Positions 5,828 through 40,923 are shown, numbered from the stretch's first letter. The stretch: DNA of 64,000 nucleotides from Candidatus Woesearchaeota archaeon (GCA_017610005.1 JAFCCU010000005.1:4205-68204), one strand, 5' to 3'. Notes: generated by a model from the letters alone, not told the origin. Numbers and translations: made by a program.

Positions 5828-6367
5828 ATGGAAAAATGTCCCTCTTGTAAAAGAACATTAGAACTTTATCGTCTAGATTTTATGCCACGACCTTTGTGTG
5901 AAAGTTGTTTATGCAAGAATATTGAGAGGAGAGTTAGGCGAGAGATAAGAACTCAATGCCCATTAACTAAGGGAGATACTGTAGTAATTGTAGATGATGG
6001 AAGTAAAGAAGCAAGGATGCTTGAATATATATTAAAGCGGTTGGAGAAGGATTTCCCAATTAAACTTTCAAAAAGTAAAGTAAAAAATGCAAAATATGCA
6101 TTACCTATTTCTTTAGATGAAGCAGCAGTAAGTTTTCTTGAACATGTAATAAATAAAAAAGGAAAAAAAATAGGATTTGCCCCATTAATGGTAGTTCATT
6201 CTGAAGAAGTAATTTTATTTACAAAATTAAAGAAACTTGGGGGAAAAAAGAAATTGATTAAGGGAAATATTAAAGATCATCTTGATACCCTTGAGAAAAA
6301 ACATGCGCAACTAAAATTTTCAATAATTAGATTTTCTAAAGAGTTAGAAGTAAGAAGTCTGAAGTAA
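5828..6367 (+). CDS. Degenerate TtuA/TtcA-like protein (Zn-binding N-terminus, eroded PP-loop)
   Basis: CPSC...LCESC followed by RRVRREI..., GDTVVIVDDGSKEA where SGGKDS is expected; C-terminus runs into the heptamer array. Confidence 0.5.
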   Translation: MEKCPSCKRTLELYRLDFMPRPLCESCLCKNIERRVRREIRTQCPLTKGDTVVIVDDGSKEARMLEYILKRLEKDFPIKLSKSKVKNAKYALPISLDEAAVSFLEHVINKKGKKIGFAPLMVVHSEEVILFTKLKKLGGKKKLIKGNIKDHLDTLEKKHAQLKFSIIRFSKELEVRSLK

Positions 6368-6637
6368 GAAGTCTGAAGTCTGAAGTAAGAAGTCTGAAGT
6401 CTGAAGTAAGAAGTAAGAAGTCTGAAGTCTGAAGTCTGAAGTAAGAAGTTAGAAGTAAGAAGTCTGAAGTCTGAAGTCTGGAGTGAAAAACAATATCAAC
6501 TATACCTTAAACCTTATACCTTAACGGTCTGGAGTCTGGAGTCTGGAGTGAAAAATATTATTTCTATATACCTTAAACTGTAAACCCTAAACTGTTCTCA
6601 GTATATATTAATACTTTAGACTGCAGACTTTAAACTG
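6340..6637 (+). repeat. Largest heptamer element: 21 tandem units, two linker modules and an inverted arm
   Basis: GAAGTCT/GAAGTAA/GAAGTTA at 6340-6486; GTGAAAAA-ACCTTA modules; GGAGTCT x3; TAGACTG/CAGACTT/TAAACTG arm. Confidence 0.97.
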
Positions 6638-8497: not shown

Positions 8498-9442
8498 CTA
8501 AATTAGCCTCTTTATTGTAACCATGCTTGATAGTGATTCAGTATAAGCATAGGTAACATTTACTAGTAACCAAGTTAGATAAGGGGCGCTACCTTCTTCA
8601 ATTGGCTCTTCTAAGTAACATTTGACAAAGTCTTCTCCTTTTTTTAGTCTCAATTTCCCAATTCCTGCATCGCCAGGCATACAAAGCATCTTTTTATCTC
8701 CTAGACTCGCTGTTACAAATGCAGTGTTTAAGTCTTCTGTTGAAAGGGCATTTGGGCCGCAGACTTCTTGGATTTTATTTTCATTAATAACAGTTCCAGT
8801 TCCCATATTTTTTATATGGATTAAATATTGGGGTATTACCTTTGAATCTCTTGTAGTGAACTTTGGTTCAATTTTTGTAACTTGTAATGGTGCACCTTGT
8901 GAACTTGGGCTTTGAGCTCTTACAAAACATGCTTTTTCTTTATTAGCATTATTAATATTAAAATAATCATTATCCATGCAGACTTCTGTACGTAGTTCAG
9001 TTGAATATTTATAACAGCTTGTTAAGATAATTTCTGATTCAACTTGAGTGGACATGTTCTGAGGGATTGGCTTTGCTTTAAGAATAAATGAAGGCATTTG
9101 AGAGTCCCCTTTTGGATTGTAAATAGTTTTACCTTCAAGAGAAAATGTACCTTCAACAGATTCATCGGATTCAATATAATCTTTATCAAAAATTAGTTTT
9201 ATTATTCCCTCAGTTATTTCTGATGCACCTTTATTGTGAATATCTGCTACAAATGAAAAAGCTTGGTCTTCGTATAATTCACTTGGCGGTGCGCCTGGAA
9301 TTCTAGTTATTACCAGTCCTTGTGTTCCTGAATGGATTTTATCATAATCAATGCTTATATCATTATCTCCTCTCCAGGGTATTGTATCGCATGCACTAAG
9401 AAATAACATACAGGCAATTAATAAGATAGTTAGTTTTTTCAT
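8498..9442 (-). CDS. Putative surface lipoprotein of unknown function
   Basis: LSAC lipobox-like signal; SCYKY...EVCMD and SSQGAPLQV motifs. Confidence 0.75.
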   Translation of the reverse strand: MKKLTILLIACMLFLSACDTIPWRGDNDISIDYDKIHSGTQGLVITRIPGAPPSELYEDQAFSFVADIHNKGASEITEGIIKLIFDKDYIESDESVEGTFSLEGKTIYNPKGDSQMPSFILKAKPIPQNMSTQVESEIILTSCYKYSTELRTEVCMDNDYFNINNANKEKACFVRAQSPSSQGAPLQVTKIEPKFTTRDSKVIPQYLIHIKNMGTGTVINENKIQEVCGPNALSTEDLNTAFVTASLGDKKMLCMPGDAGIGKLRLKKGEDFVKCYLEEPIEEGSAPYLTWLLVNVTYAYTESLSSMVTIKRLI

Positions 9443-11304
9443 GTCATTATTATTACTGGGCCAGAGTTTTCAGTTCCATCAGTACTCCCTCCCTCAATTG
9501 AAGTTGTGGTAGACTCTTCATCTGTTAATGGTTCTTCTACTATTGTTGTTTCTGTTGTTTCACCTTCTGGTAAATCCTCTTTAGGAACATCAAAAATATC
9601 TAGGTAAATTGAAGAGGTCATTGTGTAGTCATAGTCTGCGGTTAGTCTTAAATATTGAATACTTACTGGATTGGTTCCTAAAATAGTATCTGCGTCAGAA
9701 ATATTTAATCTACATTTAAAGATCCTTCCTTCTTCTACATGGTCATCTATTGCTTTTGGTAAACGAAAATCAGTTCTTCCTTCATCAGTTTTTGTTCCAC
9801 TTGAGAAATATTTACAATCTCTATCAAAACCTTCGGGCAAATTGAGAGTTAGATCTGTGATATTTAGGATTTTCCCATCCCAATTTTTTGCAATCATCAT
9901 TGATAAAACAACTGAATTGCTCTTGTCACTTTCTGATCCCCAAATTCCATTTAAGTTTTGTGTTAAGGCCATTGAAAGTAGCACTGGTCCGTTGGTATAT
10001 ACTGCTACTGGTTCTCGATCTTGAATTTTGAGGTAATCAAAAGGATCAATCCCTTCTCTAATTAATGCCCTTCTTCTGCTCTCTTCAATAAAGTAAGTTT
10101 TTAGATAGGACATTGTGGTAAAAGGATATTCAACTGCAACTGTTACTAAGCGATATCCTTTTTTTAGTTCTCCTGGTTCAAATATACATTCAAAGTCTCT
10201 AATATCTTCAATTGTTATTTCAGTCCTATTAGGAATAACCCTTCCATAAACACGGCCTCTTCCTTCCCCAGACCAACATTTTAAGGTGACATTTATTGGA
10301 TCAAGTACAGTTCTACCATGAATTGTCCCCCAAACAGATACGCTTTCATCTACAAAAAAAACAGGATTAGCTAAAATCACCTCTTCAATAGTAACTCCAA
10401 GCGGTTCATGTTCCCCTTCTTCTACACGTGCTTCATACAATCCTCCAGTGGCATAGTTAAGCTCATCAACCATCCAGTTTTGGCCACCTCTAAAAACTCC
10501 AACAACCCCTTTAAGAATATTTCCTGAAAGTTCAGCAAATCCCCCCCAAATAGTTCTTGGTTTAAATTCTCCCCCTTCATTAACAAAAGGCATTGCTATC
10601 CATTGATACTCAATAATTCCGGCAATAAAGATTATTGCAATGATTCCCATCCAAATGGATAATGCCCTTTTCGCTGGAGCGCTTTTAAATTTCTTTAGCC
10701 CCATAATCACCCATGGTGGCCAAACTGCTGGAAGAGTTAAGAAGTATAGCGCCATTTGAGTAATCTCTGAAGGAGATGTTCTTAGCCTTCCTGCAAGCCA
10801 TGATTGGACAAAAGGCATTCCCCAGGGTAAGATGAATGCACTGAATAAAAAGCATCCCAAAAGCATCTCTTTTCCAACACCTGTTAATAGGAATAAAAAT
10901 AATGCTAATCCAAAGTTAAAAAGATACCAAGAAGGACTTGTAAGCCTGGATGTTCCCCATTGATAAAAGGAGATTTGGACAATCCAAAGGATTAGGCCTC
11001 CAAGGACCATCAAGCCATAGCCAGAAGAATCTCTTCTCCTATGATACCAACGATTTTTTACATGTTCTTTAGTTTTTTTCCATATTTTTCCAGTTTTAGT
11101 TTTTTCAAACTCTTCTTTTCTTTCTGCTTTATCCTTCCTTTTATCATCCTTTCTTTCATATTTGGATTTCCGATTATCTTTTCTTTTTTCATACCTTTTA
11201 TCACGTTTATCTTTAGAGAAATATTCTTGGGTTTTAGCCCACGCATACCAAGCTCCAAATTTTGCCTTACCTGCAGCATCTTTAATCTTATCTTTAAAAC
11301 CCAT
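9439..11304 (-). CDS. Multi-TM membrane protein with a large extracellular beta domain
   Basis: Charged K/D/R/E-rich N-terminus, about five TM helices, YPF...YLKTY and YTNGPV motifs related to the two lipoproteins, acidic S/T tail. Confidence 0.75.
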   Translation of the reverse strand: MGFKDKIKDAAGKAKFGAWYAWAKTQEYFSKDKRDKRYEKRKDNRKSKYERKDDKRKDKAERKEEFEKTKTGKIWKKTKEHVKNRWYHRRRDSSGYGLMVLGGLILWIVQISFYQWGTSRLTSPSWYLFNFGLALFLFLLTGVGKEMLLGCFLFSAFILPWGMPFVQSWLAGRLRTSPSEITQMALYFLTLPAVWPPWVIMGLKKFKSAPAKRALSIWMGIIAIIFIAGIIEYQWIAMPFVNEGGEFKPRTIWGGFAELSGNILKGVVGVFRGGQNWMVDELNYATGGLYEARVEEGEHEPLGVTIEEVILANPVFFVDESVSVWGTIHGRTVLDPINVTLKCWSGEGRGRVYGRVIPNRTEITIEDIRDFECIFEPGELKKGYRLVTVAVEYPFTTMSYLKTYFIEESRRRALIREGIDPFDYLKIQDREPVAVYTNGPVLLSMALTQNLNGIWGSESDKSNSVVLSMMIAKNWDGKILNITDLTLNLPEGFDRDCKYFSSGTKTDEGRTDFRLPKAIDDHVEEGRIFKCRLNISDADTILGTNPVSIQYLRLTADYDYTMTSSIYLDIFDVPKEDLPEGETTETTIVEEPLTDEESTTTSIEGGSTDGTENSGPVIIMT

Positions 11305-11312
11305 TTTAGGAA

Positions 11313-12506
11313 CTATTCATCCTCTTCAATAAAGACACGAAGTTGTGCAATATTTAGTTCAGTTTTTGGTATAAGTGTGATATAATTTGAACCTTGCCTT
11401 AAGTAACTTTTAATGTCTTTTGAAAAGGAAAGTTCATCAGTGTCCATGTAGAACTTTCTTCTGTTTATTTCAAATTCAGCTTCTTTATCTTCGTATTCTC
11501 TGATAAAATCTAAGTCTAGATAAACTTCTAAATCATCTTCAACAATTCTTTCCCAAGTTGTATCATTTAATTCAAAATAATAAATTGGGTATCTTGCCTC
11601 TTTTAATTCAAGTTTGATTTCAATATTTGTTAGATAAAGAGTTCCTTCACTTAGATCAAACAAAACTTCATTTTTCCCAGCAACAATATCTTCTGCGGCA
11701 ATGTCAATTTTTTCATAACCATAACAGTCAGTAATAGATGAACTGATTAATCCTCCATTTAAGTATACTTTTAAGATTCCTTCTTGTCTGCCTTTACATT
11801 CTTCTGTGAATCTTAAATAGCCATGGTCATATTCATCTACTTCTACTTGAGAGAGTCTAAAGGTTGATAATGCTTCCATTGCTTCTAAGTTTCTTGTTGA
11901 TGCAATTAACTTCACATCACGAATTTCATATTGGTTTCTTCCCCAAAATCTATACCATGGCACTTTTGGTACTGAAAATTCAAGATAATTAGTATCTTCA
12001 ATTAAAATAGTATCTATTCTAAGAGGCCCATTAACCCCCCGATTTAGTTCTCCATAAAATATTTCTTGACCATTAAATGTAATAATGATTTTACCACTTG
12101 AATCTTGCACATAAAATGATAAAATTAAGGCTTCATATTCTATTCCTTCAGTCGTTTCAAATCTAATTGTCGCATCTTTTTTATCTAATTTTGAACTCAT
12201 TACATAAACAGAGGATTTTTCTGCAACCACCCGATCTTCAGATTGGGAAGATAGAACTATTTGGCTTAAGGGATGTTCAAAACTTTTTTGTTCTTGTGCA
12301 AATAGTGAGCCTGGAGATTCAATAACCAATTCAGTTATATTATCTGCATCAACAATTCCTCCATTTGCCTCAGTTTCATTTATTCCAAGAATTGCATTTC
12401 TGTCATCTGGTCTTAAAACAAACAGGTAAACAATTAGAATCATTCCTATGAAAATTACAAGCCCCGCTGCATTGCCTGCCATCTCCTGCCCCTTTTTACG
12501 TGCCAT
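11313..12506 (-). CDS. Membrane-anchored acidic extracellular protein
   Basis: KKGQ followed by a hydrophobic helix (class III/pilin-like signal), then a beta-rich acidic domain. Confidence 0.7.
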   Translation of the reverse strand: MARKKGQEMAGNAAGLVIFIGMILIVYLFVLRPDDRNAILGINETEANGGIVDADNITELVIESPGSLFAQEQKSFEHPLSQIVLSSQSEDRVVAEKSSVYVMSSKLDKKDATIRFETTEGIEYEALILSFYVQDSSGKIIITFNGQEIFYGELNRGVNGPLRIDTILIEDTNYLEFSVPKVPWYRFWGRNQYEIRDVKLIASTRNLEAMEALSTFRLSQVEVDEYDHGYLRFTEECKGRQEGILKVYLNGGLISSSITDCYGYEKIDIAAEDIVAGKNEVLFDLSEGTLYLTNIEIKLELKEARYPIYYFELNDTTWERIVEDDLEVYLDLDFIREYEDKEAEFEINRRKFYMDTDELSFSKDIKSYLRQGSNYITLIPKTELNIAQLRVFIEEDE

Positions 12507-12560
12507 AACTATACTAATACACTATTTTATATATAAAAGTTATGATAAATCAAGGATTTA

Positions 12561-12595
12561 TGTCTGAAGTTAGAAGTCCGAAGTGAAAAATACTA
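12561..12595 (+). repeat. Short heptamer array with GTGAAAAATACT linker
   Basis: TGTCT GAAGTTA GAAGTCC GAAGTGAAAAATACT. Confidence 0.8.
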
Positions 12596-12606: not shown

Positions 12607-13872
12607 TCAAAAGGGTTTTACTTTGGTGAAATAATCATTAATGCTTTTTAAATGGGTTTTTTCGTTTTTTATTTGTTTATTTTTCATAATTACCTTGCCG
12701 TTAATTATGCTTAATTCTACATCTGATCCATTGGATGAGTAGATAATATGGGAAATAATGGTTTCTTTTTTAGCTGGGAAGAATTTTGGTTGATTTATTG
12801 GGATACCTATAATATCTGCTAAAAAATTTTTTTCAATTCTTCCAGTTTTTAAACGTAAGATTTCTGCTGCATTTCTAGTTGCCATATCTAGAATGGCCTG
12901 AGTGGGCATTACAGTTGAATCATTTAAAGAATATTTGTGTAGCAAGCCAGTTGCCTTCATCTCTTCAAAGATATCTTGATTGTTGTTACTTGCATTGCTG
13001 TCTGTTCCTAAACTCACGTTTGTTTTAAATTTTAATAGCTCTGGTACTGGAAGTCTGGCGCCAGATGCAAGTTTAAGATTGCTAACTGGACAATGAACGG
13101 CGCTTGCGCCTGTTTTTGCATAATCTTTGGTTTCATTTAGCCAACAAAGGTGAATCCCAATTGTGTTTTTATTTAGGAAATTTATACTGTTTAGATAATC
13201 AATTACTCCTTTACCTGTTTTCTTTTTAATAAATTCTGCTTCGGGTTTTGTTTCAAGAATGTGAATAAAATTAAGCATGTTAAGTTCATTTGCAAGGCTT
13301 GCACCTGCTTTTAGTAAATCTTCTGAACAAGTATTTGGGGCGTGAATCCCAATAGCTTGGGTGATTAATTCTCGATTTTTTAATTTTGGAATCAGATCTT
13401 TTGTTATCTTCAATTCTTCTTTTATTTTGTTTTTATCAAATAAATCAAGCATGCAATAACTTAAAAATGCCCTGATCCCAATTGTTTCTGCAGCTTCTGC
13501 CACGCGTTCAATCCCAAAAGAGTGATCACAAAACGTGGTTGTGCCTGCTTTTACACTTTCAAGCGCAGTGAGTAGTGATCCATAATAAACATCTTTGATT
13601 TTTCTTTCGGCGGGCCAAACTTTCTTTTCAAGCCAATCTTTTAGTGGGAGATCATCTGAAATTCCTCTTAGAAGGTTTGTGCAAGTGTGAGTATGAAGAT
13701 TGATTAGGCCAGGCATAATCAACATGTCAGAGCAGTCAATTGCTGGACATTTCTCATCGGCCTTTCCAATTTTAACAATCTGATTATCTTGGATCAATAT
13801 GTCCTGGTGCTCCAGCACCTCGCGTTTATCATTTTGCGTTACAATGAAGCGGCAGTTTTTAAGTAATAACAT
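12607..13872 (-). CDS. mtaD: Amidohydrolase, MTA/SAH deaminase-like
   Basis: PGLINLHTH, IHILET, VHCPVSNLKLASG, LGTDSNASNN motifs. Confidence 0.85.
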   Translation of the reverse strand: MLLLKNCRFIVTQNDKREVLEHQDILIQDNQIVKIGKADEKCPAIDCSDMLIMPGLINLHTHTCTNLLRGISDDLPLKDWLEKKVWPAERKIKDVYYGSLLTALESVKAGTTTFCDHSFGIERVAEAAETIGIRAFLSYCMLDLFDKNKIKEELKITKDLIPKLKNRELITQAIGIHAPNTCSEDLLKAGASLANELNMLNFIHILETKPEAEFIKKKTGKGVIDYLNSINFLNKNTIGIHLCWLNETKDYAKTGASAVHCPVSNLKLASGARLPVPELLKFKTNVSLGTDSNASNNNQDIFEEMKATGLLHKYSLNDSTVMPTQAILDMATRNAAEILRLKTGRIEKNFLADIIGIPINQPKFFPAKKETIISHIIYSSNGSDVELSIINGKVIMKNKQIKNEKTHLKSINDYFTKVKPF

Positions 13873-13905: not shown

Positions 13906-13982
13906 TTACTTGTTCCCAGCATAAAAAATCTTTTCTATTGAGACATCTTCTGGGGTGAAGCCACCGGTTCTTTGGTGGAAGT
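13906..13982. repeat. 77-bp exact duplicate of the 3' end of ORF 15665-15934
   Basis: Identical base for base to 15665-15741. Confidence 0.97.
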
Positions 13983-14051
13983 GATAATGTGCTGAAGATC
14001 TTCCGATTTTTCTTCAAGAACTCATTTATATAGCCTTGAGCGGACTTTGTT

Positions 14052-15215
14052 ATGTTGCTTTCAACTCAGGATATTGAACGATTATCTCCAGGATATAAGC
14101 GATTTTATTATGGAGAAAGTGAATTGTTAGATGCGCCCATAGATCTTTATCAGAGAGGAAGGCTCCGAGATCTCTATAATCGAACAGATAATCTTGGAAG
14201 ATTGATTGGAACAGATTTAGAAAGTCTAAAAACAAGTAAAAGCAGATATAAAAATATCTTTTTTTGGAGAGGGATTTCTTATTATATGGGGCTAAGATTA
14301 AGCCCATTAGATAAATTGAGTTACTTGGCAAAAGATGAGCGGGAAGTAAAATCTGATTTATTAGAATCCATAATTCAAATAGATGATTTATTAGAAAATG
14401 AAATGGAGGAGACTGGAGATTTGACTTATTCTCTTTTAGATCATCAAAGAAATAATTTCCTGGTTATTTTTAAGTCCTATTTTTCTCAATTATTTAGTGA
14501 TCCTGGGTTAATTGAATATTTCCAACCAATGGTTGAAATGTTAAGTGAGGCAGTTTCAAACTTGTATTACTTTTGTTTATCCAAACCACCTATTTTTAAT
14601 CATCTTAATAATAAATTGTTAAGTGATCTCCTCCCATGGATAAAATTAGATCACTCAAGTTGGTGGAGAGAGTTAGATGATCCATTGAAAATATTATTTT
14701 ATTCGGCTAACGTGATTGAAGAAAGAAGAAAACCCTTTGAAGTAGTTATTAATCCTTTTTCTGGTGCTTTAGAGCTTGGATTTGCATTAAAAACTGTTAG
14801 TGAAATTCTTAATAACCCTGTAGTGAATGATATTGTCTTTTTTGATTATTCGGTTTATGATAGGGGGAAAATAATTGATATTTCTGAATCTGCAGATGAG
14901 ATTCTTTCAGATATAATCCAAGGGAGCTTTCCAAAACCTTTAGCAGATTCAAGTATGTCTAGAATGTGGGGAAAAGAATCATTTATTCTTGATGATAATC
15001 TAACGACGGGGAAAACTCTTTTTGGCATGAAGAGAAGCTTATTAAAATCAGGCATAAGTCCAAGAGTTTTTACTGGGGCAATTGAACTCGGGAGAGAGGA
15101 TAGGGCAGGCAGGTTTAGTGTGGGTGTTCTGGAAAATTTAGATTTCATGCCCATAGGGGATCGCATGAGTGCGGGAAAAAAGGCTAGAAAAATACTGGAG
15201 CCATTTATAAAATGA
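14052..15215 (+). CDS. Orphan protein with a C-terminal phosphoribosyltransferase-like motif (cassette cargo)
   Basis: FILDDNLTTGKTL resembles the type I PRTase PRPP-binding loop; lies between the 77-bp direct repeats. Confidence 0.6.
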   Translation: MLLSTQDIERLSPGYKRFYYGESELLDAPIDLYQRGRLRDLYNRTDNLGRLIGTDLESLKTSKSRYKNIFFWRGISYYMGLRLSPLDKLSYLAKDEREVKSDLLESIIQIDDLLENEMEETGDLTYSLLDHQRNNFLVIFKSYFSQLFSDPGLIEYFQPMVEMLSEAVSNLYYFCLSKPPIFNHLNNKLLSDLLPWIKLDHSSWWRELDDPLKILFYSANVIEERRKPFEVVINPFSGALELGFALKTVSEILNNPVVNDIVFFDYSVYDRGKIIDISESADEILSDIIQGSFPKPLADSSMSRMWGKESFILDDNLTTGKTLFGMKRSLLKSGISPRVFTGAIELGREDRAGRFSVGVLENLDFMPIGDRMSAGKKARKILEPFIK

Positions 15216-15664
15216 TAATGTTTATTAATATTAAGCACTTAAGGAAAATTAGAATGGGATCTCCAATATTCTCTCCTGAGGTAGGTACTTGGGTTAGAAT
15301 CAATACTAGGCCACCCCTAGTTGTAAGCCCTCTGAAATGCTCGTCTCAATATGATGTTGCTAGAGATTTGGTTGATATTGTGATGGATAGGATAATAACA
15401 AGTCATTACTTGAATAATGGTGAAATGAGTGATCCTGATTGGGATTCTACACTTGTGAAAATGGGAGATTTTATTAGTAGGAGATATCAAGGTGATTTAA
15501 GAGAAGATTTAATAGATTATGTTGGTGGCAGAATCTCTGTTTTAGAGGGTTTGATGGTACATTTGGGGCCCAGTGAGAAAGTTGAGCAATTTGCAATAGA
15601 AAATAGAAGAATCCCTTGGGAATGGGTATCCCTAAGTGGCTCTAGAATAAGGCTTTATGAGTAG
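15212..15664 (+). CDS. Hypothetical protein (cassette cargo)
   Basis: 150-aa ORF overlapping the previous stop by 4 nt; its stop codon abuts the direct repeat at 15665. Confidence 0.55.
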   Translation: MIMFINIKHLRKIRMGSPIFSPEVGTWVRINTRPPLVVSPLKCSSQYDVARDLVDIVMDRIITSHYLNNGEMSDPDWDSTLVKMGDFISRRYQGDLREDLIDYVGGRISVLEGLMVHLGPSEKVEQFAIENRRIPWEWVSLSGSRIRLYE

Positions 15665-15934
15665 TTACTTGTTCCCAGCATAAAAAATCTTTTCTATTGA
15701 GACATCTTCTGGGGTGAAGCCACCGGTTCTTTGGTGGAAGTTTGGTTTAGCTTCAACTTGCTTCTCAATTGGTCTTTGAATTTCAATTGGTCTTTCCATT
15801 TGTTTTTCCACTTGTCTTTGAACCATACTTGGATTGGAATCTCCCTTAAGATGGGCAATTTCTCGTCTTAACTCTGATAACTCAGAAAACACCTTTGAAA
15901 AATTAGATTCTAGCATACTTGTTATTTGTTCCAT
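15665..15934 (-). CDS. Small coiled-coil protein downstream of ftsZ
   Basis: 89-aa ORF 10 nt after ftsZ; coiled-coil N-terminus and TGGFTPEDVSIEKIFYAGNK tail. Confidence 0.7.
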   Translation of the reverse strand: MEQITSMLESNFSKVFSELSELRREIAHLKGDSNPSMVQRQVEKQMERPIEIQRPIEKQVEAKPNFHQRTGGFTPEDVSIEKIFYAGNK

Positions 15935-15944
15935 TAAATATCAC

Positions 15945-16982
15945 CTATATTAAGTTGTTAATATCGTTGACCATTTCTTTTCTTGGGCCCTCTTCTTGGA
16001 ACTTGCCTAGAATCCAAGGGGATTTTACTCCAGTTATAATTGTCATGACAGTAATCTTCCCAACCATATTCTCATCGATGCGTGCCCCCCAAATGACATT
16101 TGCATCTGGATCAAGTTCTTGAGTTATTTGTTCACCAACTTGAGTAATATCATCAAGAGTCAAGTCTGGCCCCCCTTCAATGTGAATTAGGGCCCCCCTT
16201 GCTCCTTTGTAATCAATTTCAAGCAAGGGATTTTTTAGTGCTAAATCCACTGCTTGTTGTACGTGTTTATCACCTGCGCTAGACCCTACGCCAATGGCAG
16301 CAACTCCTCCATTAGTCATAATGGCTTTAACGTCTGCATAATCAAGATTAACTAAGGAAGGCACTGAGATTGTTTCTACAATTCCTTTAATCATTGTTGC
16401 AATTAATTCATTTGCAATTGCAAATGCTTGTTGCACTGGTAAATTCCCTGCGATTTGCACAAGTCTATTATTATCAACCACAATAACTGTATCGCAGTGT
16501 GCCCTCATTTGTGAGAGCCCAAATTCTGCTTTATCCATTCTAGCTCTTTCTATTGAAAATGGCATTGTAACTGTTCCAATAGTTATTGCTTTCATTTCAG
16601 AAGTTAATTTTCCAATGACTGGAGCAGCACCTGTTCCAGTGCCTCCGCCCATGCCTGCGCATAAAAATACCATATCAACGCCTTGCATTAATTCCCTCAT
16701 TTCATATAAAGATTCTTCTGCAGCACTACTTCCTTGTTTTGGATAGCCACCAGCTCCAAGGCCCTTTGTGACATTTTTTCCAATTAGCAGTTTTTTATCT
16801 GCTTCACTGATATTCAAATGTTGTTGATCAGTGTTACATGCAATAATTTCAGCTCCTTTGATCCCTTTTTTATATAACCAAGAAACCATATTACAACCTG
16901 CTCCACCAATCCCAAGAACTTTAATATTAGCTTGACCTATATCAAGATTTCCAGAATGTTCCTCAACTTCTAAAATAGACAT
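15945..16982 (-). CDS. ftsZ: Cell division protein FtsZ (paralogue A)
   Basis: IKVLGIGGAG, NTD, GMGGGTGTG signature, NLDYAD T7 loop; ATG at 16982 follows a GAGG SD-like site (ORF track starts at 17018). Confidence 0.97.
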   Translation of the reverse strand: MSILEVEEHSGNLDIGQANIKVLGIGGAGCNMVSWLYKKGIKGAEIIACNTDQQHLNISEADKKLLIGKNVTKGLGAGGYPKQGSSAAEESLYEMRELMQGVDMVFLCAGMGGGTGTGAAPVIGKLTSEMKAITIGTVTMPFSIERARMDKAEFGLSQMRAHCDTVIVVDNNRLVQIAGNLPVQQAFAIANELIATMIKGIVETISVPSLVNLDYADVKAIMTNGGVAAIGVGSSAGDKHVQQAVDLALKNPLLEIDYKGARGALIHIEGGPDLTLDDITQVGEQITQELDPDANVIWGARIDENMVGKITVMTIITGVKSPWILGKFQEEGPRKEMVNDINNLI

Positions 16983-17061
16983 TTTAAACCTCGTTAATCT
17001 CTTTTTATTTGCATACACATAACTTATTAATAAATGTTACGTTTTTGTATACTAGTATATC

Positions 17062-17117
17062 TCAGTCTGAAGTCTGAAGTCTGAAGTCTGAAGTCTGAAG
17101 TCTAAAGTTTGAAGTGT
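17062..17117 (+). repeat. Heptamer array (8 units) in the ftsZ/trmI divergent promoter region
   Basis: TCAGTCT, GAAGTCT x5, AAAGTTT, GAAGTGT. Confidence 0.95.
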
Positions 17118-17170
17118 GACTGGCTTCAAGGTATCTGGGGAGGGTTTTTTGGAAAGGTTTTTAATAAGGT

Positions 17171-17926
17171 GTGGTTTTTAAATTATTAATGACGAAAATC
17201 AAGAAAGGCGAATGGGTGCTTTTACTATCTAAAGAACATTCTTATCTTCTTAAGGCAGATGGTAAGATGCATACAAGTGATGGTATTGTGGAGTTAAAGG
17301 ATTGTAAAGAATTTGGAACTTATGTAAAAACTCACAAGGATTTTGAATTTGCAGTTGTAAAACCTAATATTAATGATTTATTAAATAAGAAAATGAAGCG
17401 AATGCCCGCTTCAATTCATAAAAAAGATTTGGGGTTTATTATTGGTGTAACCGGGCTTCAGAAAGACTGGAAAGTACTGGAAGCTGGAACTGGGTCTGGG
17501 CATGCAACATTATTTTTTGCTGAGCATTGCACAAAAGTTATTTCTTATGAAGTAAGAGAAGATTTTCATAAGCATGTTAAGGATAATTTAGAGCTTTTAA
17601 ATATAAAAAATGTGGAGCTTAGAAATAAGGATATTAAAGAAGGAATTAAAGAAAAAGACTTTGATTTAATTTTACTTGATATGAAAGGGTCTGAAGAAAT
17701 AATTGAAATAGCAACAAAAGCTCTAAAACCTGGTGGTTTTATAGTTATTTACTCTCCTTATATTGAGCAAAGTAAACTTGCTGTTGAGAAATTAACTGAA
17801 CTTGACTTTAATGGGATAGAAACAAGTGAAACAATTTTGCGTACTTGGGATGTTAGAGATCATACACTGCCAAAGCGAGCCGGCATGATGCACACGGCAT
17901 TTATCACGATTGCCCGGAAGGTTTAG
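17171..17926 (+). CDS. trmI: tRNA (adenine-N1)-methyltransferase, TrmI/Gcd14 family
   Basis: VLEAGTGSG SAM motif, ISYEVREDF, ILLDM, YSPYIEQ, HTAFITIARK. Confidence 0.9.
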   Translation: MVFKLLMTKIKKGEWVLLLSKEHSYLLKADGKMHTSDGIVELKDCKEFGTYVKTHKDFEFAVVKPNINDLLNKKMKRMPASIHKKDLGFIIGVTGLQKDWKVLEAGTGSGHATLFFAEHCTKVISYEVREDFHKHVKDNLELLNIKNVELRNKDIKEGIKEKDFDLILLDMKGSEEIIEIATKALKPGGFIVIYSPYIEQSKLAVEKLTELDFNGIETSETILRTWDVRDHTLPKRAGMMHTAFITIARKV

Positions 17927-18788
17927 CCTTTCTTTTCCTTATTATATATGTTGTAATTGGGTATCCTGCGTCAAGAATAATACCTACTCCCAATAGTATT
18001 GCTAATGCTTTGGTAAGGCCTCGAAAAAACAAGTAATCTCTTTGAGCTTCCACTGCAGTATCATACAATTCATCTGAAACTTTTTGCCTTGGATTTAATC
18101 TTGATGCTTCCCCTACAATCAAAGCAGCAGACTCAAGGGATGCAATTGCTGGTTGAAAGGTTTCAACTGTAACTGGCATTCCATAAACTCTCTTTAAATC
18201 ATTTCCTTTAGGGAGATCACGAGCAATTTTCTCAAGGGCTGGTTTTAATGCCTTTATTCTTTCTAAGATATTTGCATATAAATTTATACTATTTGTAGCG
18301 AGACGTATGGCAACTTTAGCATCGCCGGGGTCAGGAAAATCATAAGAGCTGGAAAGGTATTCTTGGGCATTTCCAATCGAATTGATTGCTCCAGAAATCT
18401 TTTCTACATTTCCTTCTTTTGGGAGCTCTTGAAGTGAAGAAATAACTATATCAAGACTTGCCCTTACATCGGCAAATTGGTGCTCAATAATCCCATTTTC
18501 ATCAGTAACCCTGTAATCATTTTCTTCTGGAAGCCCCACCCTTATAATCAATAGGCTGTTTTTAATCATCTCCACTCTTTTTTCTAAAGAGGGCCCTAGG
18601 GTATGACCCTTATAGCTTAATGATTGTGCAATTCTTGCAGCTTCTTGAAGGCTATCTCTTGCGTTTAAGGGATCTGGGTCATCAGAATTCATTTGAAGAT
18701 GGATAATTGAGGCCAGCAAATTTTCATGTACATCATCATAGATCTGGCTTGGGCGAACCTCTCTACTTTCTACCTTATTTGCTCCCAT
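17904..18788 (-). CDS. Helical orphan protein with a C-terminal TM (cassette cargo; possibly frameshifted at its 5' end)
   Basis: Two DPxxA-containing helical halves and a C-terminal hydrophobic helix; the stop lies inside the trmI 3' end. Confidence 0.6.
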   Translation of the reverse strand: MGANKVESREVRPSQIYDDVHENLLASIIHLQMNSDDPDPLNARDSLQEAARIAQSLSYKGHTLGPSLEKRVEMIKNSLLIIRVGLPEENDYRVTDENGIIEHQFADVRASLDIVISSLQELPKEGNVEKISGAINSIGNAQEYLSSSYDFPDPGDAKVAIRLATNSINLYANILERIKALKPALEKIARDLPKGNDLKRVYGMPVTVETFQPAIASLESAALIVGEASRLNPRQKVSDELYDTAVEAQRDYLFFRGLTKALAILLGVGIILDAGYPITTYIIRKRKAKPSGQS

Positions 18789-18898
18789 ACTGCATCATAT
18801 TTAGTCTTATTAAGGTCATAAAAACCCCACAGGGTTCCAATCACTGCAATAATGACCGGGTAAACAATTGCTCTCACAATAGTTTCTTTTTTCCACAT
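18770..18898 (-). CDS. 42-aa TM peptide, probably the separated N-terminus of 17904-18788
   Basis: MWKKETIVRAIVYPVIIAVIGTLWGFYDLNKTKYDAVWEQIR*, overlapping the next ORF by 19 nt in another frame. Confidence 0.4.
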   Translation of the reverse strand: MWKKETIVRAIVYPVIIAVIGTLWGFYDLNKTKYDAVWEQIR

Positions 18899-18970
18899 GA
18901 AAAGGGAGAAGAGAGTATTATTTAAAAAAGTAGTTATTGTAGTAAGTTCATATTTCTATTAAGGGGTTAT

Positions 18971-19033
18971 ACCTTGCCCAAGCGAGCAGGCATAATGCGC
19001 CTCGCATTTATCACTGTGGCAAGAAAGGTTTAG
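18971..19033 (+). pseudogene. Diverged duplicate of the trmI 3' end (21 codons including the stop)
   Basis: Encodes TLPKRAGIMRLAFITVARKV* versus TLPKRAGMMHTAFITIARKV* at 17864-17926; 48/63 nt identical. Confidence 0.9.
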
Positions 19034-19579: not shown

Positions 19580-20632
19580 ATGAAAATAATTAAGAGTAAT
19601 TATAAGCATGGTGAGCTTGTAATTAAAATTGAGAATTTGAATGATTTATGGTATTTGTCACAGGTTTTAGAGCCAAGAGATATTGTTAAGGGTAAAACTG
19701 AAAGGAAAATTAGTATTGGTGGTAAGGAAGAAAAAAGGCAAATAAAACGAGTTTGGATTACTCTTTCTTTAGAAGTTGAAAAAATTGAATTTCATAAGTA
19801 TTCAGATGTTTTAAGAGTTTCAGGAAAAATTACTGAGGGCACAGATGATATACCCCATGGTCAATATCACACAATTAATGTTGAACCAGGAATTATTTTG
19901 ACAATTACAAAAGTTGAATGGCTTGATTATCAAAAAAAATACATTAAAGAGTCTTTAGAAAATGCTCCGGAATTTTTACTTTGTGTGCTTGATCGCGATG
20001 AAGCTTGCTTTGCACTTTTAACGGGGCAAGGATATAGGATTTTGAGTTCTTTTAAGGGAGAAGTTGAAAATAAGCGGGTTAAAGATAAAAAACCAACTCA
20101 CTTCTATGGAGATGTAATAAAATTAATTGAAGATTACAATAAACGGCATAAAGTAAAATCCATAATTATTGCGTCTCCTTCTTTTTGGAAAGAGGATTTA
20201 TTAAAGGAAATTAAAAGTCCAGAATTAAAACAAAAAATTATTCAAGCAACTTGTAATCACACTGGGCAGCAAGGGATTAATGAAGTGTTAAAACGAGATG
20301 AACTACAAACTGCATTAAAAGAAGATAGAATTAGTCATGAAATGGTAATTGTTGAGCAATTATTAAAAGAAATTTCTTTAGATAAAAATGCGGCTTATGG
20401 TATGAAAGAAACAATTAAAGCAACAAATGCTGGGGCGGTATTAACTTTGCTTGTGACAGATGAACTAATAAGAGAAACAAGGCAAAAAGAAACATATGCT
20501 GGCCTTGCAAATATCATGAAAGCAGCACAACATAGCGGTGCCAAAATTGAAATTATTGAATCTGAGAACCCTGGCGGGAAAAAGCTTGATGGTCTTGGAG
20601 GCATTGGCGCAATTCTGAGGTACAAGTTATGA
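19580..20632 (+). CDS. pelA: mRNA surveillance protein Pelota
   Basis: NLNDLWYLSQVL, LRVSGKI, HTINVE, LDGLGGIGAILRY. Confidence 0.96.
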   Translation: MKIIKSNYKHGELVIKIENLNDLWYLSQVLEPRDIVKGKTERKISIGGKEEKRQIKRVWITLSLEVEKIEFHKYSDVLRVSGKITEGTDDIPHGQYHTINVEPGIILTITKVEWLDYQKKYIKESLENAPEFLLCVLDRDEACFALLTGQGYRILSSFKGEVENKRVKDKKPTHFYGDVIKLIEDYNKRHKVKSIIIASPSFWKEDLLKEIKSPELKQKIIQATCNHTGQQGINEVLKRDELQTALKEDRISHEMVIVEQLLKEISLDKNAAYGMKETIKATNAGAVLTLLVTDELIRETRQKETYAGLANIMKAAQHSGAKIEIIESENPGGKKLDGLGGIGAILRYKL

Positions 20633-20723
20633 GTCTAAAGTTTAAAGTTCAAAGTCCAAAGTCCCTTCTTACTTCAAACTTCTTACTTCAAACTTCTTAC
20701 TTCAGACTTCTTACTTCAAACTG
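20630..20723. repeat. Heptamer array with an inverted 14-bp-period arm
   Basis: TGAGTCT AAAGTTT AAAGTTC AAAGTCC AAAGTCC, then repeated ACTTCTT ACTTCAA units; begins at the pelota stop. Confidence 0.92.
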
Positions 20724-26536: not shown

Positions 26537-27180
26537 GAGAAATACAAACCGGAGTATTTGAAGGAAATAGGAAACTGTATACTTTAAACAAGATTAAGGG
26601 CAACCCGGTTTATGGTGAGCCTTTTGTAAATCAAAACGGAAAAGAGTTTAGAGAATGGAATCCAAGCAGAAGCAAACTTGCAGCAGCAATATTAAAGGGT
26701 ATGGAAGGAATTAAAATTGACGAAAAAACAACTGTGCTTTATTTGGGGGCTGCTTCAGGCACAACAGTTTCTCATGTTGCTGATATCTGTAAATGGGTTT
26801 TCGCATTAGAGTTTTCAGTTGAGACATTTTCAGATTTATTACTTGTTGCAGAAAAAAGAAAAAATATAATTCCTTTGCTTGCGGATGCAACAATGCCAGA
26901 AGAATATTTCCATAGAGTAAAGGCAGTTGACTTTTTATACCAAGATATTGCACAAAAACAACAAGTAGAGATATTTGAGAGAAATTGTAGATTATTCTTA
27001 AAACCTGGTGGACTTGGATTTTTATGTGTTAAAGCAAGAAGTATTGATGTTTCAAAACACCCAAAGAAAATTTTTGGAGAAGTTAAAGAGCAATTAAAAA
27101 ATTCTTTTAGAGTTCTTGATAATAGAACAATGCAACCTTTTCAGCGAGATCATGCAGCTTTTCTAGTACAAAGACGTTAG
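26533..27180 (+). CDS. flpA: Fibrillarin (rRNA/tRNA 2'-O-methyltransferase)
   Basis: REWNPSRSKLAAA, VLYLGAASGTTVSHVAD, YQDIAQ, VKARSID. Confidence 0.96.
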   Translation: MREIQTGVFEGNRKLYTLNKIKGNPVYGEPFVNQNGKEFREWNPSRSKLAAAILKGMEGIKIDEKTTVLYLGAASGTTVSHVADICKWVFALEFSVETFSDLLLVAEKRKNIIPLLADATMPEEYFHRVKAVDFLYQDIAQKQQVEIFERNCRLFLKPGGLGFLCVKARSIDVSKHPKKIFGEVKEQLKNSFRVLDNRTMQPFQRDHAAFLVQRR

Positions 27181-27266
27181 AAGTCTGAAGTAAGAAGTTT
27201 GAAGTAAGAAGTTTGAAGTAAGAAGTTTGAAGTAAGAAGTGAAAAACACTTATTTACCTTAACAGT
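27180..27266 (+). repeat. Heptamer array (9 units, 14-bp higher-order period) with GTGAAAAACACT/ACCTTAAC linker
   Basis: GAAGTCT, alternating GAAGTAA/GAAGTTT, GAAGTGA; begins at the fibrillarin stop. Confidence 0.95.
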
Positions 27267-35344: not shown

Positions 35345-36265
35345 CTATTCCTTAAATTCAGCATCATCTATTATTCCATCAGAATCAAAGTCAATGCCTT
35401 CTACAACTTTTGCCATTATACTTTCATCATATTTATTGCCTTTAGTTACTTCATTAAAATGTTTTAAAATTCCCACGATTGCTGCTTTTGTTCCTGCATG
35501 CCTTTTACCTGCAATTAGAAGCACATTATGGTCCGGGGATAATGGATTTTTAGTACGAACGATTATTCCAAGTTCATCTCCTGTGTAAGTATTGCCAGTA
35601 ATTGTTGATTTAATAGTTAAGGTGTCTCCTTTTTCAAAGTGTACTGGCAGGGAATCATTTATTTGTTCTGTAATTTTATTTACAATTGGGCCTCCAATTA
35701 GAATTAAATTTTGTTTTAGTTCTTCGGGATTTACTTCAGTATCTAGTTTTACATTTGGTTTTTGAACAAAATTTAGGAACGTTCCAATTAAAAGTCCTAG
35801 ATCAATACCATAATAACCATCCCTTGCTCTTGCTTTATCTGGTCCGTGAGGATCTGGAGAGCCTGTAACAATTAAAGCATTTAGGGCCCCATTTTCAATA
35901 AAAGGTGCGAAGAATGACGCTTCTTCTTTTAGTTTTAGTGCATTAGGGCTTCTTTGGAACTCACTAAATGAAAAGAAAAATCCTTTTTTTGAAAGCGTAT
36001 AGTATTTTGCAAAAGAGCCTTTGATTCGTTCTGTTTTTGTGGGGATAACAATCCCTGCTTTTTCTAAATTTCTAATGTGGTAGTAAATCTTTTGCTCGTG
36101 TTCATCTAATACTTGGGCAATTGCCTTAGGGTAGAGCTCATTTCCCTTTAATGCATTAATTATTTTAAAGACTAGGGGGGAATTAAGATGATTTAATTTC
36201 TTAAGAGAAATCTCCTCTGCAGGTAAAGATTTAACACCAGTTTCATCAGTTTTTACAATATACAT
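35345..36265 (-). CDS. ArsR-like HTH transcriptional regulator with an uncharacterised C-terminal domain
   Basis: YPKAIAQ..EQKIYYHIRNLEKAG wHTH; C-terminal GSPDPHGP, LILIGGPIVN, AGKRHAGT. Confidence 0.7.
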   Translation of the reverse strand: MYIVKTDETGVKSLPAEEISLKKLNHLNSPLVFKIINALKGNELYPKAIAQVLDEHEQKIYYHIRNLEKAGIVIPTKTERIKGSFAKYYTLSKKGFFFSFSEFQRSPNALKLKEEASFFAPFIENGALNALIVTGSPDPHGPDKARARDGYYGIDLGLLIGTFLNFVQKPNVKLDTEVNPEELKQNLILIGGPIVNKITEQINDSLPVHFEKGDTLTIKSTITGNTYTGDELGIIVRTKNPLSPDHNVLLIAGKRHAGTKAAIVGILKHFNEVTKGNKYDESIMAKVVEGIDFDSDGIIDDAEFKE

Positions 36266-36330: not shown

Positions 36331-37251
36331 TTATTTAAAATTCCTTATTTGGTCAATGATCAATCTAAGCATCATAGATACGTATAGCTTAGCATTCCCA
36401 TTATCAGACTCTTCTAATGTTGAGTAGTAATCTTCTCTTTTTTCAAATGGGATAAAAAACATAGGATATTTATTTTTCATTAAAATCCAGTTCATAATAA
36501 CCCTTGCAGTTCTTCCATTTCCATCTTCGAAAGGATGAATCCAAGCAATCTTAGCATGAATTAAAGTTGCGAGTGAAAAAGGGTGGATAGTTTGTTTATT
36601 GGCGCTGTACCATTTATACATATTTAGAAGATGCTTTTTCACTTCCTCATTCTTAGGAGGAGTATGGCTAGCTCCTTCGATTTTAACATCAAAGAATCTA
36701 ATTCTCCCTCCATAAACTACGTCCGTATTCTTTGTTAAAATTCCATTTACTTGCTCAAGCAGTTTGTTGTTTAGCCCTCCATCATATCCCTTTAAAAATT
36801 CAAGGCATTTCCTGCCATTGATCGCTTCATGATAATCAACTGCCCTTACCCCTGAAGGGAGCACTTTATCTTTTAGGATTAGTGCAGTTTGCCTTAATGT
36901 AAGTCGATTGCCTTCAATAGCATTTGTGTTGTAGGTAAATCTTATCACAAAATCATCATAGAGTTTTTCCCTAACACTCTTTGGAGTTTTTTTAATCCAC
37001 TCCTTAAAACCTTCCTTTAGATCTTGAAGTGTCTCCGCATTTTGGTTTTTTAAGAAAGAGTATGTTGGTTTTAAAAATTCCTTGGCTTTTTTCTCTATCT
37101 CTTTAGCATGAGCGTTTATTTCTTCTTTAGTTGGAGTTTTATCTCCTAGATATACTCTTATCTTCTTCCATTTATTTATTTCTAGTCTAACATTCTTTGT
37201 GAGATAGAAATATTCCTTATTCCCCTTCCTCATCCTCTCTAAATAAGTCAC
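36331..37251 (-). CDS. Fic family protein with an N-terminal extension
   Basis: Canonical HPFEDGNGRTAR; TNAIEGN. Confidence 0.93.
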   Translation of the reverse strand: MTYLERMRKGNKEYFYLTKNVRLEINKWKKIRVYLGDKTPTKEEINAHAKEIEKKAKEFLKPTYSFLKNQNAETLQDLKEGFKEWIKKTPKSVREKLYDDFVIRFTYNTNAIEGNRLTLRQTALILKDKVLPSGVRAVDYHEAINGRKCLEFLKGYDGGLNNKLLEQVNGILTKNTDVVYGGRIRFFDVKIEGASHTPPKNEEVKKHLLNMYKWYSANKQTIHPFSLATLIHAKIAWIHPFEDGNGRTARVIMNWILMKNKYPMFFIPFEKREDYYSTLEESDNGNAKLYVSMMLRLIIDQIRNFK

Positions 37252-39843: not shown

Positions 39844-40923
39844 ATGGACTTTGTAGTCGAAAACGCAGTTAAAAATGCACAAGAAAATTTTGAAGAGTTA
39901 GATGTAGGGCAAGCCAACATTAAAGTTATTGGTGTTGGCGGTGCTGGTAATAATATGGTTTCTTGGTTATATAAGAAAGGAATCAAGGGAGCGGAAATTA
40001 TTGCATGCAACACTGATCAACAACATTTGAATATCTCTGAAGCTGATAAAAAGTTCTTGCTAGGTAAGGATTGTACCAAGGGACTTGGATGCGGTGGATA
40101 TCCAGACAAAGGCGCTGAAGCAACTAAGGAATCTATCCAAGAAGTAAAAGAATCACTTCGCGGTTCAGATATGGTATTTGTTTGCGCAGGAATGGGTGGA
40201 GGCACTGGAACCGGTGGAGCACCAGTTATTGCAAAACTTTCCAAAGAAAACAATTCAATTGTGATTGGAACAGTTACTATGCCCTTTAAAATTGAAAGAG
40301 CCAGAGTAGATAAAGCAGAGTATGGTTTACAACAATTAAGGCAAGTAGCTGATACTGTTATTGTGATAGATAATAATAGACTTGTGCAAATTGCAGGAAA
40401 CTTGCCCGTGCAGCAGGCTTTTGCAGTAGCAAATGAACTTATTGCAACCATGATTAAAGGCATTGTTGAAACAATTGCAATTCCAAGTTTAGTTAACTTA
40501 GACTTTGCTGATGTTAAGGCAATTATGACAAATGGTGGAGTTGCTGCAATCGGAGTAGGAGCAAGTGACACCAATAACCGAGTTGAAGAGGCAGTTAACA
40601 GTGCATTAAGTAACCCTTTATTGGATATTGACTACAAGGGTGCCTCTGGCGCACTCATTCATGTTGTTGGTGGTCCAGATTTAACCTTGGATGAAATAAG
40701 CCAGATAGGTGAGCTTGTTACAGGTTCACTTGATGAAGATGCAAATGTCATCTGGGGAGCAAGGATTAGAGAAGATATGAAGGGACGTGTTACTGTCATG
40801 ACTATTATGACTGGTGTTAAATCTCCTTGGATCTTAGGGCGAAATCAGACAGAAGAGCGCGTTGTTCAGAGAGTCGAGATGACTGAACTGGATGATGAGC
40901 TAGGCATTGAAGTCTTGAGATAA
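39844..40923 (+). CDS. ftsZ: Cell division protein FtsZ (paralogue B)
   Basis: IKVIGVGGAG, GMGGGTGTG, NLDFAD. Confidence 0.97.
   Translation: MDFVVENAVKNAQENFEELDVGQANIKVIGVGGAGNNMVSWLYKKGIKGAEIIACNTDQQHLNISEADKKFLLGKDCTKGLGCGGYPDKGAEATKESIQEVKESLRGSDMVFVCAGMGGGTGTGGAPVIAKLSKENNSIVIGTVTMPFKIERARVDKAEYGLQQLRQVADTVIVIDNNRLVQIAGNLPVQQAFAVANELIATMIKGIVETIAIPSLVNLDFADVKAIMTNGGVAAIGVGASDTNNRVEEAVNSALSNPLLDIDYKGASGALIHVVGGPDLTLDEISQIGELVTGSLDEDANVIWGARIREDMKGRVTVMTIMTGVKSPWILGRNQTEERVVQRVEMTELDDELGIEVLR

Follow-up and report, generated by a model that had tools for sequence, protein, structure and literature searches.

In the streptococcal families of integrative and conjugative elements (ICEs) and integrative and mobilizable elements (IMEs), insertion into the 3' ends of protein-coding genes, which are thereby restored, is driven by a tyrosine or serine recombinase. 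Cis-mobilizable elements (CIMEs) and satellites are non-autonomous, flanked by attachment (att) sites and mobilised in trans, while integrative mobile elements exploiting Xer (IMEX), for example the CTX phage, employ the host Xer recombinase at a single dif site with a conserved 28-bp sequence. Archaeal and bacterial integrative elements are known to enter the 3'-distal part of a protein-coding gene while restoring that gene, to form tandem arrays and to give rise to derivatives without an integrase (PMC6563490). Archaea, including Nanoarchaeota, also possess integrons and clusters of attC sites lacking an integron-integrase (CALINs) (PMC9668308), and the tycheposon islands of Prochlorococcus hold the remnants of degenerated elements (10.1101/2020.12.28.424599). 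Here, we describe two loci in a 64-kb stretch of a Woesearchaeota (DPANN) genome (hereafter, the window; 34.5% G+C) at which one or two genes lie between the intact 3' end of a host gene and a displaced second copy of that end, and we consider both to be probable single-crossover insertions of small circular cassettes at gene-end homology.

DPANN archaea have very small genomes and depend on a host; how they acquire accessory genes is little understood, and descriptions of their mobile elements are few. The route considered here would allow cassettes of one or two genes to dock behind essential genes without damaging them, to stack and to be reshuffled between related genomes, with no integrase of their own. 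Their cargo includes toxin-antitoxin-like pairs, a SpoIIE-type phosphatase, an enzyme with a predicted phosphoribosyltransferase (PRTase) fold and its partner, and many ORFans. An initial sequence-only reading of this DNA had suggested that the route could be undescribed. The principle of 3'-end integration, the arrays and the integrase-less derivatives are known (PMC6563490, and the tycheposons), and what would be new here is an integrase-free, one- to two-gene, many-target form of att-site accretion and integron-like capture. Limited searches of the literature found no description of integrase-free gene-end cassettes in DPANN.

Our comparison set consists of the window and 83 related loci (given as L numbers), in all 1.24 Mb and 1349 open reading frames (ORFs). 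Against the thaumarchaeal integrated mobile genetic elements (PMC6563490), the likeness is in the direct repeats, with one copy in the intact 3' end of a gene and a replacement end that brings its own stop codon, and in the empty sites of relatives, a hybrid repeat and tandem accretion at one site. Unlike those elements, the cassettes have no integrase, their inserts in the window measure 1.0-1.7 kb with one or two genes, and they use many unrelated gene ends, with repeats of at most 123 nt that are plain coding copies and possess no common core. CIMEs, satellites and tycheposon remnants likewise have att-like repeats around cargo without a recombination gene, newcomers that push older cargo away from the target, and small adaptive or defence-like modules. 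They do, however, have identifiable helpers with the same att site and tRNA genes as targets, whereas here the targets are the ends of protein-coding genes. No helper element was found in the scanned ORFs of the window, in the 1.24 Mb of related loci or in IMG/VR.

Integrons and CALINs resemble the cassettes in their arrays of small discrete units at a repeated site, in an order that differs between relatives, in having no recombinase of their own, and in toxin-antitoxin-like cargo (here, a helix-turn-helix (HTH)-nucleotidyltransferase with an unannotated 140-aa partner). The repeated site differs, being the coding 3' end of a host gene rather than a hairpin-forming attC; attC-like hairpins were ruled out by fold z-scores and by the in-frame coding copies. 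Further differences are that no intI or attI was found in the scanned window ORFs or around the arrays behind map (methionine aminopeptidase) in related genomes, and that cassettes frequently carry two genes, which may point either way and have upstream regions of their own. With IMEX, the cassettes would share integrase-free integration by a host enzyme, as well as tandem arrays, but IMEX use dif alone and the cassettes at least seven unrelated gene ends, a variety of targets that speaks against Xer/dif-dependent integration. A transposon with target-site duplication was rejected on account of the repeat lengths (28-123 nt), the diverged copies and the failure to find a transposase in the ORFs scanned; none of the 25 longest of 54 inverted pairs was an inverted repeat at the ends of an insert.

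Two displaced gene ends in the window

The host gene of the first locus encodes an 89-aa protein and follows ftsZ. The features of the locus, in window coordinates, are as follows.

12607..13872, minus strand: amidohydrolase gene, the next gene past the displaced copy (Pfam Amidohydro_1, E 2.6e-57)
13906..13982, minus strand: outer (attR-like) repeat of cassette 1, a displaced duplicate of the final 24 codons and stop codon of the 89-aa gene
13983..14051, plus strand: upstream region of c387 and inner end of cassette 1 (69 nt; contains TTTATATA)
14052..15215, plus strand: cargo gene c387, predicted to have a helical N-terminal domain and a C-terminal half of type I PRTase fold
15212..15664, plus strand: cargo gene c150, the conserved small partner of c387
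15665..15741, minus strand: attL-like repeat of cassette 1, within the intact 89-aa gene
15665..15934, minus strand: host gene 1, a lineage-specific 89-aa coiled-coil protein (from the ORF list; weak, sub-threshold Pfam match only)
15945..17018, minus strand: ftsZ, a conserved gene that served as anchor for retrieving relatives (Pfam Tubulin and FtsZ_C)

The repeats at 13906-13982 and 15665-15741 are identical at 77 of 77 nt (self-BLAST E 1.5e-28), just as the sequence-only reading had it. The displaced copy translates to FHQRTGGFTPEDVSIEKIFYAGNK followed by the stop, and because in-frame stop codons lie just upstream, it is a fragment and not a gene. Identity ends exactly at the host stop codon, and past 13982 there is no similarity to the 89-aa host gene. 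Both cargo genes are on the plus strand and convergent on the host gene, the stop codon of c150 abutting that of the host, and the order is host gene, antisense c150, c387, 69-nt upstream region, copy and amidohydrolase gene. The insert is 1.7 kb long and the host ORF is intact.

At the second locus the host is trmI, the homologues of which carry the name tRNA (adenine57/58-N1)-methyltransferase. It is divergent from ftsZ (15945..17018, minus strand), with which it has a common intergenic region.

17171..17926, plus strand: host gene 2, trmI (tRNA m1A57/58 methyltransferase, GCD14 family; Pfam GCD14, E 1.8e-16)
17855..17926, plus strand: attL-like repeat of cassette 2, formed by the final 23 codons and stop codon of the intact trmI
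17904..18788, minus strand: cargo gene c294 (ORFan; hydrophobic C-terminus), whose final 7 codons and stop codon enter the trmI 3' end
18770..18898, minus strand: cargo ORF c42 (from the ORF list), upstream of c294; it would encode a small hydrophobic protein and may or may not be a real gene
18962..19033, plus strand: attR-like repeat of cassette 2, a displaced and diverged duplicate of the final 23 trmI codons and the stop codon
19083..19547, plus strand: 154-aa gene, the next past the displaced trmI copy (from the ORF list)
19580..20632: pelota, after the 154-aa gene (eRF1 domains, Pfam)

Here, the copies (17855-17926 and 18962-19033) agree at 54 of 72 nt, or 75%, in an ungapped alignment (E 1.2e-8; tblastn E 2.6e-8); the copy first reported as 63 bp at 76% identity is thus real, and its alignable stretch is 72 bp at 75%. 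The displaced copy is in frame and both copies end in TAG (RDHTLPKRAGMMHTAFITIARKV versus RGYTLPKRAGIMRLAFITVARKV), with eight synonymous and six non-synonymous codon differences between them. As at locus 1, the similarity ends exactly at the host stop codon and the host ORF is intact. The order is trmI, antisense c294 (overlapping trmI by 23 nt), c42, copy and 154-aa gene, in an insert of 1.0 kb. With the closest relative (L081) as an outgroup, nine left-hand sites are like the intact copy and three right-hand sites like the remnant; the polarity is that of the hybrid repeat in L072 (below), but the pattern is weak since the sites are synonymous and the outgroup is distant.

Both loci therefore possess the layout that the sequence-only reading had described (host gene, antisense cargo, cargo upstream region, copy, next gene), including a cargo stop that abuts the host 3' end (c150) or enters it (c294). 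Its view of the cargo as antisense to the host applies to both window loci and is not general, as the cargo of cassette A in L053 and the inserts of L038 point in the same direction as the host gene. That the inserts lack an integrase, another of its claims, is borne out by the cargo: c387, c150, c294 and c42 have no match in Pfam or PADLOC, and c150 and c294 have none in PHROGs either. For the window at large, Pfam was run on 50 of the 57 largest ORFs and revealed no tyrosine or serine recombinase and no transposase; seven window ORFs with no Pfam match were also negative in PHROGs. Rfam gave no match for the cargo or the repeats.

Copies of gene 3' ends in related genomes

The window has no near neighbour in GTDB. 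Its FtsZ is at most 76% identical to those of Woesearchaeota and Nanoarchaeota metagenome-assembled genomes there, where we found 557 related stretches, and among the 80 Woesearchaeota loci retrieved from GTDB via FtsZ, synteny with the window stops at ftsZ itself. For each ORF of the comparison set, the last 120 nt were used as a query against the 6 kb on each side, with a cut-off of at least 50 bits. Queries from 3' ends gave 17 matches downstream on the same strand and one upstream, those from 5' ends gave three on either side, and those from mid-gene segments gave five downstream and three upstream. The opposite strand gave none in any class, and neither did shuffled 3' ends, which had no match at 40 bits or more either.

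Downstream copies of gene 3' ends are thus enriched over the shuffled control (17 versus 0) and over the positional controls (1-5). On inspection, some five of these 17 matches proved to be segmental duplications or paralogues of whole genes, which leaves about 12 that copy the gene end only. Two of these end-only copies are in the window; the others follow the RIO-kinase gene in L082/L083, map in L072 (one copy) and L053 (three copies), cbf5 and a 150-aa gene in L038, and the gene of a Zn-ribbon protein in L064, together with weaker cases. L087 and L088 represent the same genome as L053 and were not counted as independent cases. Matches in L033, L016, L058 and L038 (402..908) proved to be spurious ORFs, paralogues or segmental duplications and were excluded from the count.

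The end-only copies bracket inserts of about 1-4 kb with repeats of 28-123 nt, and both the window and L038 use two unrelated target genes within one genome. Some 20 cargo ORFs are enclosed by these repeats, and none is a recombinase or integrase. Besides the HTH-nucleotidyltransferase and its 140-aa partner, they include a DUF6036 nucleotidyltransferase paired with an HTH protein, a SpoIIE/PP2C phosphatase and its 117-aa partner, a tetratricopeptide repeat (TPR) protein, and ORFans. No repeat-flanked element of more than 6 kb was found in the related loci.

Two other duplications were seen during this search. In L043, a perfect 37-nt copy (17345-17381) of the end of a second FtsZ-like gene (16113-17279) lies 66 nt past the stop codon with no cargo between; this may represent a site that has lost its cassette, or else a small tandem duplication. 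In L058, a duplication with 78% identity (16549-17433 and about 17419-18753) takes in the final 350 nt of a gene and at least 100 nt beyond it; it exceeds the end-only copies in size and is closer to a segmental duplication.

One of the best places to see occupied and empty sites side by side is the end of map. The map genes of L049 and L072 are 93% identical in protein and 86% in DNA. In L049, map is directly followed by a 76-aa gene that in L072 comes only after the remnant, and the DNA after map in L049 is orthologous to the DNA after the L072 remnant and not to that after its intact copy. In L011, L036 and L052, map is directly followed by a convergent 133-aa gene that in L053 and L072 lies 6.6-6.8 kb from map. 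Empty sites in relatives, which the sequence-only reading had asked for, are thus present in four loci of the map hotspot.

The 87-nt repeat of L072 is a hybrid. At five informative sites in its left-hand part, L049 agrees with the intact copy; at three in the right-hand part, it agrees with the remnant, with one exception; and between the two lies an identical core of 35 nt. This is the composition predicted for one reciprocal crossover between a gene end and a circle with its own copy, about 10% diverged. The structure is not an assembly join, since L085, a strain 93% identical to L072 and from another sample, shows the same occupied arrangement; for at least this case, a refutation that had been foreseen from the start falls away.

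Arrays are found behind the same gene. That of L053 reads map-A-repeat-B-repeat-C-repeat-tail, and that of L086, an independent genome with flanks about 90-95% identical to those of L053, reads map-B-repeat-A-repeat and is directly followed by the 133-aa gene. In both genomes, the left end of cassette A has the same right half-site, ending in ACAACATTTAAATAG, which forms the C-terminus of the methionine aminopeptidase (LTKNTTFK, then stop) in L053 and lies within a remnant in L086. Its right end is in both a truncated 52-nt repeat that starts with AGGCAGA right after the stop codon of the 140-aa ORF. The last repeats of the two arrays have a common central stretch of 43 nt, which is consistent with the last repeat being the native gene end. 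Because the cassette-specific half-sites are kept despite the change of order, each cassette is a discrete unit that can be circularly permuted and that recombines within the repeat of the gene end, with the newest cassette beside the gene. No integrase was found around the map arrays. Searches of viral contigs (IMG/VR) with c387, the map repeat and the cassette B protein of 285 aa revealed no helper element.

The cargo of locus 1 is found behind another gene as well. In L082, and in L083 from another sample, homologues of c387 and c150 lie between two direct repeats, identical over 28 nt, at 9855-9882 and 11789-11816; the second repeat sits inside the 3' end of a convergent RIO-kinase gene. 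Similarity at the protein level reaches further left (ETLKRLETVELRGRNKGK versus ETQNLDKIELRGRNKGK), after which the two copies run into separate short tails, each with a stop codon of its own. The c387-c150 module is thus tightly bracketed by the ends of two different host genes in two genomes, which makes random decay of larger elements hard to invoke. In the closest relative, L081 (FtsZ 75%, TrmI 60%), the c150/c387 module comes directly after trmI, the contig ending close by, and the trmI end therefore holds different cargo in the window and in L081. The distant c387 homologues of L084, L089 and L090 have no gene-end repeat or lie on a short contig.

Probable insertion mechanism and rival explanations

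The single-crossover insertion that we consider probable for the window loci would start from circles of about 1.76 kb (locus 1) and 1.11 kb (locus 2), each consisting of one or two cargo genes and a separate copy of the 3' end of the host gene, stop codon included. One reciprocal crossover per circle, in the last 25 or so codons of a conserved gene, would leave a complete host gene in which the left half of the repeat is native and the right half comes from the cassette. The original end would be displaced past the cargo as a dead fragment, made up of the cassette's left half and the native right half. Repeated events at one gene end would stack cassettes into an array, and recombination between two repeats would free a cassette as a circle again. 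Capture by a single crossover at conserved gene ends, as suggested in the sequence-only reading, is supported by the hybrid repeat of L072, by the reshuffling of cassettes A and B between L053 and L086, and by the c387-c150 pair at the RIO-kinase gene of L082; to the two window loci, as having arisen in the same manner, it would extend by analogy and through the common cargo.

As the cassettes encode no recombinase, the crossover would have to be made in trans. Granted a single-crossover insertion, we give about an even chance to host homologous recombination acting on the short gene-end homology; the main alternative, an unlinked site-specific recombinase, we hold to be somewhat less probable. 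The seven gene-end repeats contain no common 6- to 8-mer above the shuffled expectation. Folded as DNA, six of seven copies have z-scores from -0.98 to +0.17, and the intact L072 copy has a z-score of -2.6. The want of a common k-mer and of hairpins, the spread of lengths (28-123 nt) and the use of two targets per genome favour homologous recombination, or else several recombinases. If host homologous recombination is responsible, genes are captured without a dedicated enzyme or site; if an unlinked recombinase is, then that enzyme must handle many unrelated targets.

Several points tell against this account of the window loci or of their mechanism. The repeat of locus 1 is 77 nt long, which is a common assembler k-mer size, and an integrated cassette and an empty site with a free circle have an identical k-mer graph. 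At locus 2, the repeat is only 75% identical and its longest identical run is 11 nt, which is too short for homologous recombination unless the event is old, so that a short site-specific core fits better. The left boundary of the map repeat is near-constant (-87 to -92) in three species, as one would expect of a defined attP segment. The window covers 64 kb of the genome, and an unlinked integrase may be encoded elsewhere in it. The window loci have no close relative (the nearest TrmI in the databases is only 60% identical), the exact 77-mer of locus 1 has no match in a metagenome contig collection, and an exact database look-up of the host 89-aa protein found no record elsewhere. Given the position of the module in L081, local rearrangement could also have contributed at locus 1.

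The best surviving rival, which we nevertheless regard as unlikely, is that the repeats mark integrase-encoding integrative elements (proviruses or plasmids) that targeted the 3' ends of protein-coding genes and then decayed, with loss of the integrase and most genes, leaving attL, cargo and attR. The repeat anatomy would be identical, and archaea and bacteria offer precedents in elements that integrate 3'-distally in protein-coding genes, stand in tandem arrays or have degenerated (PMC6563490, 14 of 68 elements), as well as in the tycheposon islands with their scattered partial tRNAs (10.1101/2020.12.28.424599). Against it, the approximately 12 end-only pairs in 1.24 Mb enclose no integrase or integrase fragment, and no larger repeat-flanked element (>6 kb) was found in the related loci. 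Random decay is also unlikely to leave exactly the c387-c150 pair at two host genes in two genomes, or cassettes such as A and B that persist as discrete, order-swapping units.

Local rearrangement without a mobile intermediate is less likely still. The repeat would then be the by-product of one illegitimate joint, arising, for example, when a tandem duplication is followed by internal deletion, or when linear DNA of a relative enters by illegitimate recombination that homology facilitates. The position of the c150/c387 module in L081, across ftsZ-trmI from its position in the window, is in keeping with this, as it amounts to a shift of about 3 kb between lineages, and partial segmental duplications do occur in the set (451 nt in L058, the 37-nt tandem copy in L043). 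However, locus 1 would take at least three steps, and tandem duplication plus deletion, considered there on account of L081, was judged less parsimonious. Nor does local rearrangement account for the 75%-identical copy at locus 2, for the hybrid pattern of L072, for arrays with cassette-specific half-sites, or for the bias toward 3' ends over 5' ends and mid-gene segments.

It is very improbable that locus 1 is an assembly artefact, in which a free 1.76-kb circle or a strain variant having 77 nt in common with the chromosome was threaded into the contig: the perfect repeat of exactly one standard de Bruijn k-mer length, the single k-mer graph of the two forms and the one assembly from which this organism is known speak for it, but locus 2 at 75% identity cannot arise in this way, the same architecture is found in many independent assemblies made with different assemblers (with L072 and L085 from two samples), and a cargo circle with a 77-nt gene-end copy would itself be the excised form of the cassette.

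Returning to single-crossover insertion, a much broader statement can be made only tentatively. Woesearchaeota may exchange cassettes of one or two genes without a dedicated recombinase or site, each circle carrying the 3' end of its last host gene and being inserted and looped out by host homologous recombination; the resulting arrays behind map, trmI, cbf5, the RIO-kinase gene and other core genes might then be a main source of the flexible genome in these symbionts with their tiny genomes, and gene capture would be addressed by homology. Whatever the enzyme, displaced gene ends are a cheap signature for mapping flexible islands in metagenome-assembled DPANN genomes, and common cassettes could trace gene flow between populations.

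Cargo proteins and other features of the window

Among 1.84e9 representative proteins, c387 has 30 relatives, and the family conserves the phosphoribosyl pyrophosphate (PRPP)-loop motif IxDDNxxxGxTL (DDN..TG.TL). The AlphaFold2 model of c387 has a predicted local distance difference test (pLDDT) score of 86 and a predicted template modelling (pTM) score of 0.90. Its top Foldseek matches are HGPRT, PyrR and APRT, and these are modest (best E 1.2e-3, none at or below 0.001; TM 0.2-0.5). That c387 might be a novel recombinase was considered and ruled out by the PRTase-fold C-terminal half and the PRPP-loop motif; judging from the model, it is probably an enzyme or effector and not an integrase. 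The ORFan c294 matches only itself among 5.8e9 proteins.

Homologues of c150 adjoin those of c387 in L081 and L082, the two loci in which c150 homology was tested, and an ORF of 121-145 aa follows the c387 homologue in L084, L089 and L090; all c387 homologues examined have an ORF of 121-150 aa beside them. One member of the c387 family, P0125 (655 aa), has a long extra N-terminal region, seen as unaligned residues, which we take to resemble phosphoribosylanthranilate isomerase (TrpF). If this is real, it hints that the c387 family acts on a phosphoribosyl compound.

Upstream of c387 homologues and of a neighbouring GGDEF gene is a motif of about 40 nt, CACCACT..AGTGG..AAACGAAAC.TTTAAATA, consisting of a small inverted repeat and then a promoter resembling a TFB-recognition element and TATA box (BRE/TATA). 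Its sites are L089 1237-1278 and 2637-2678, L082 9935-9980 and L090 3109-3148, and it may be a marker of the cassette head or a local promoter consensus. In L084, an 81-aa ORF (9252-9497) with a partial match to the diphthamide-synthase family comes after several small ORFs downstream of the c387-partner pair, and this may be another displaced gene end. Diphthamide synthesis genes are integration targets in Thaumarchaeota.

The window also contains a second ftsZ paralogue (39844-40923), with 72% DNA identity over 956 nt to the ftsZ beside the cassettes (15945-17018). Arrays of a 7-nt unit (GAAGTCT or GAAGTTA and variants), frequently with 14- or 21-nt super-periods, occur on both strands in many intergenic regions: 1415-1490, 6337-6590, 12557-12594, 17064-17119, 20632-20722, 27171-27245, 58271-58340 and 62277-62332. 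One of them lies within the divergent ftsZ-trmI promoter region; the cassette boundaries have no such arrays.

In contrast to the AT-rich genome around it, a G+C-rich repeat of 97 nt is present at 1569-1665, just 5' of a topoisomerase gene, and at 44363-44459, within a doubtful 103-aa ORF; the two are 91% identical, and there is a partial copy at 44285-44349. This repeat has no Rfam match and is a candidate for a small structured RNA, or else for a miniature mobile element. Finally, a Fic/DOC-domain protein (36331-37251) adjoins a protein with HTH and S-layer-like domains (35345-36265), a pair that may be a further accessory or toxin-like module.

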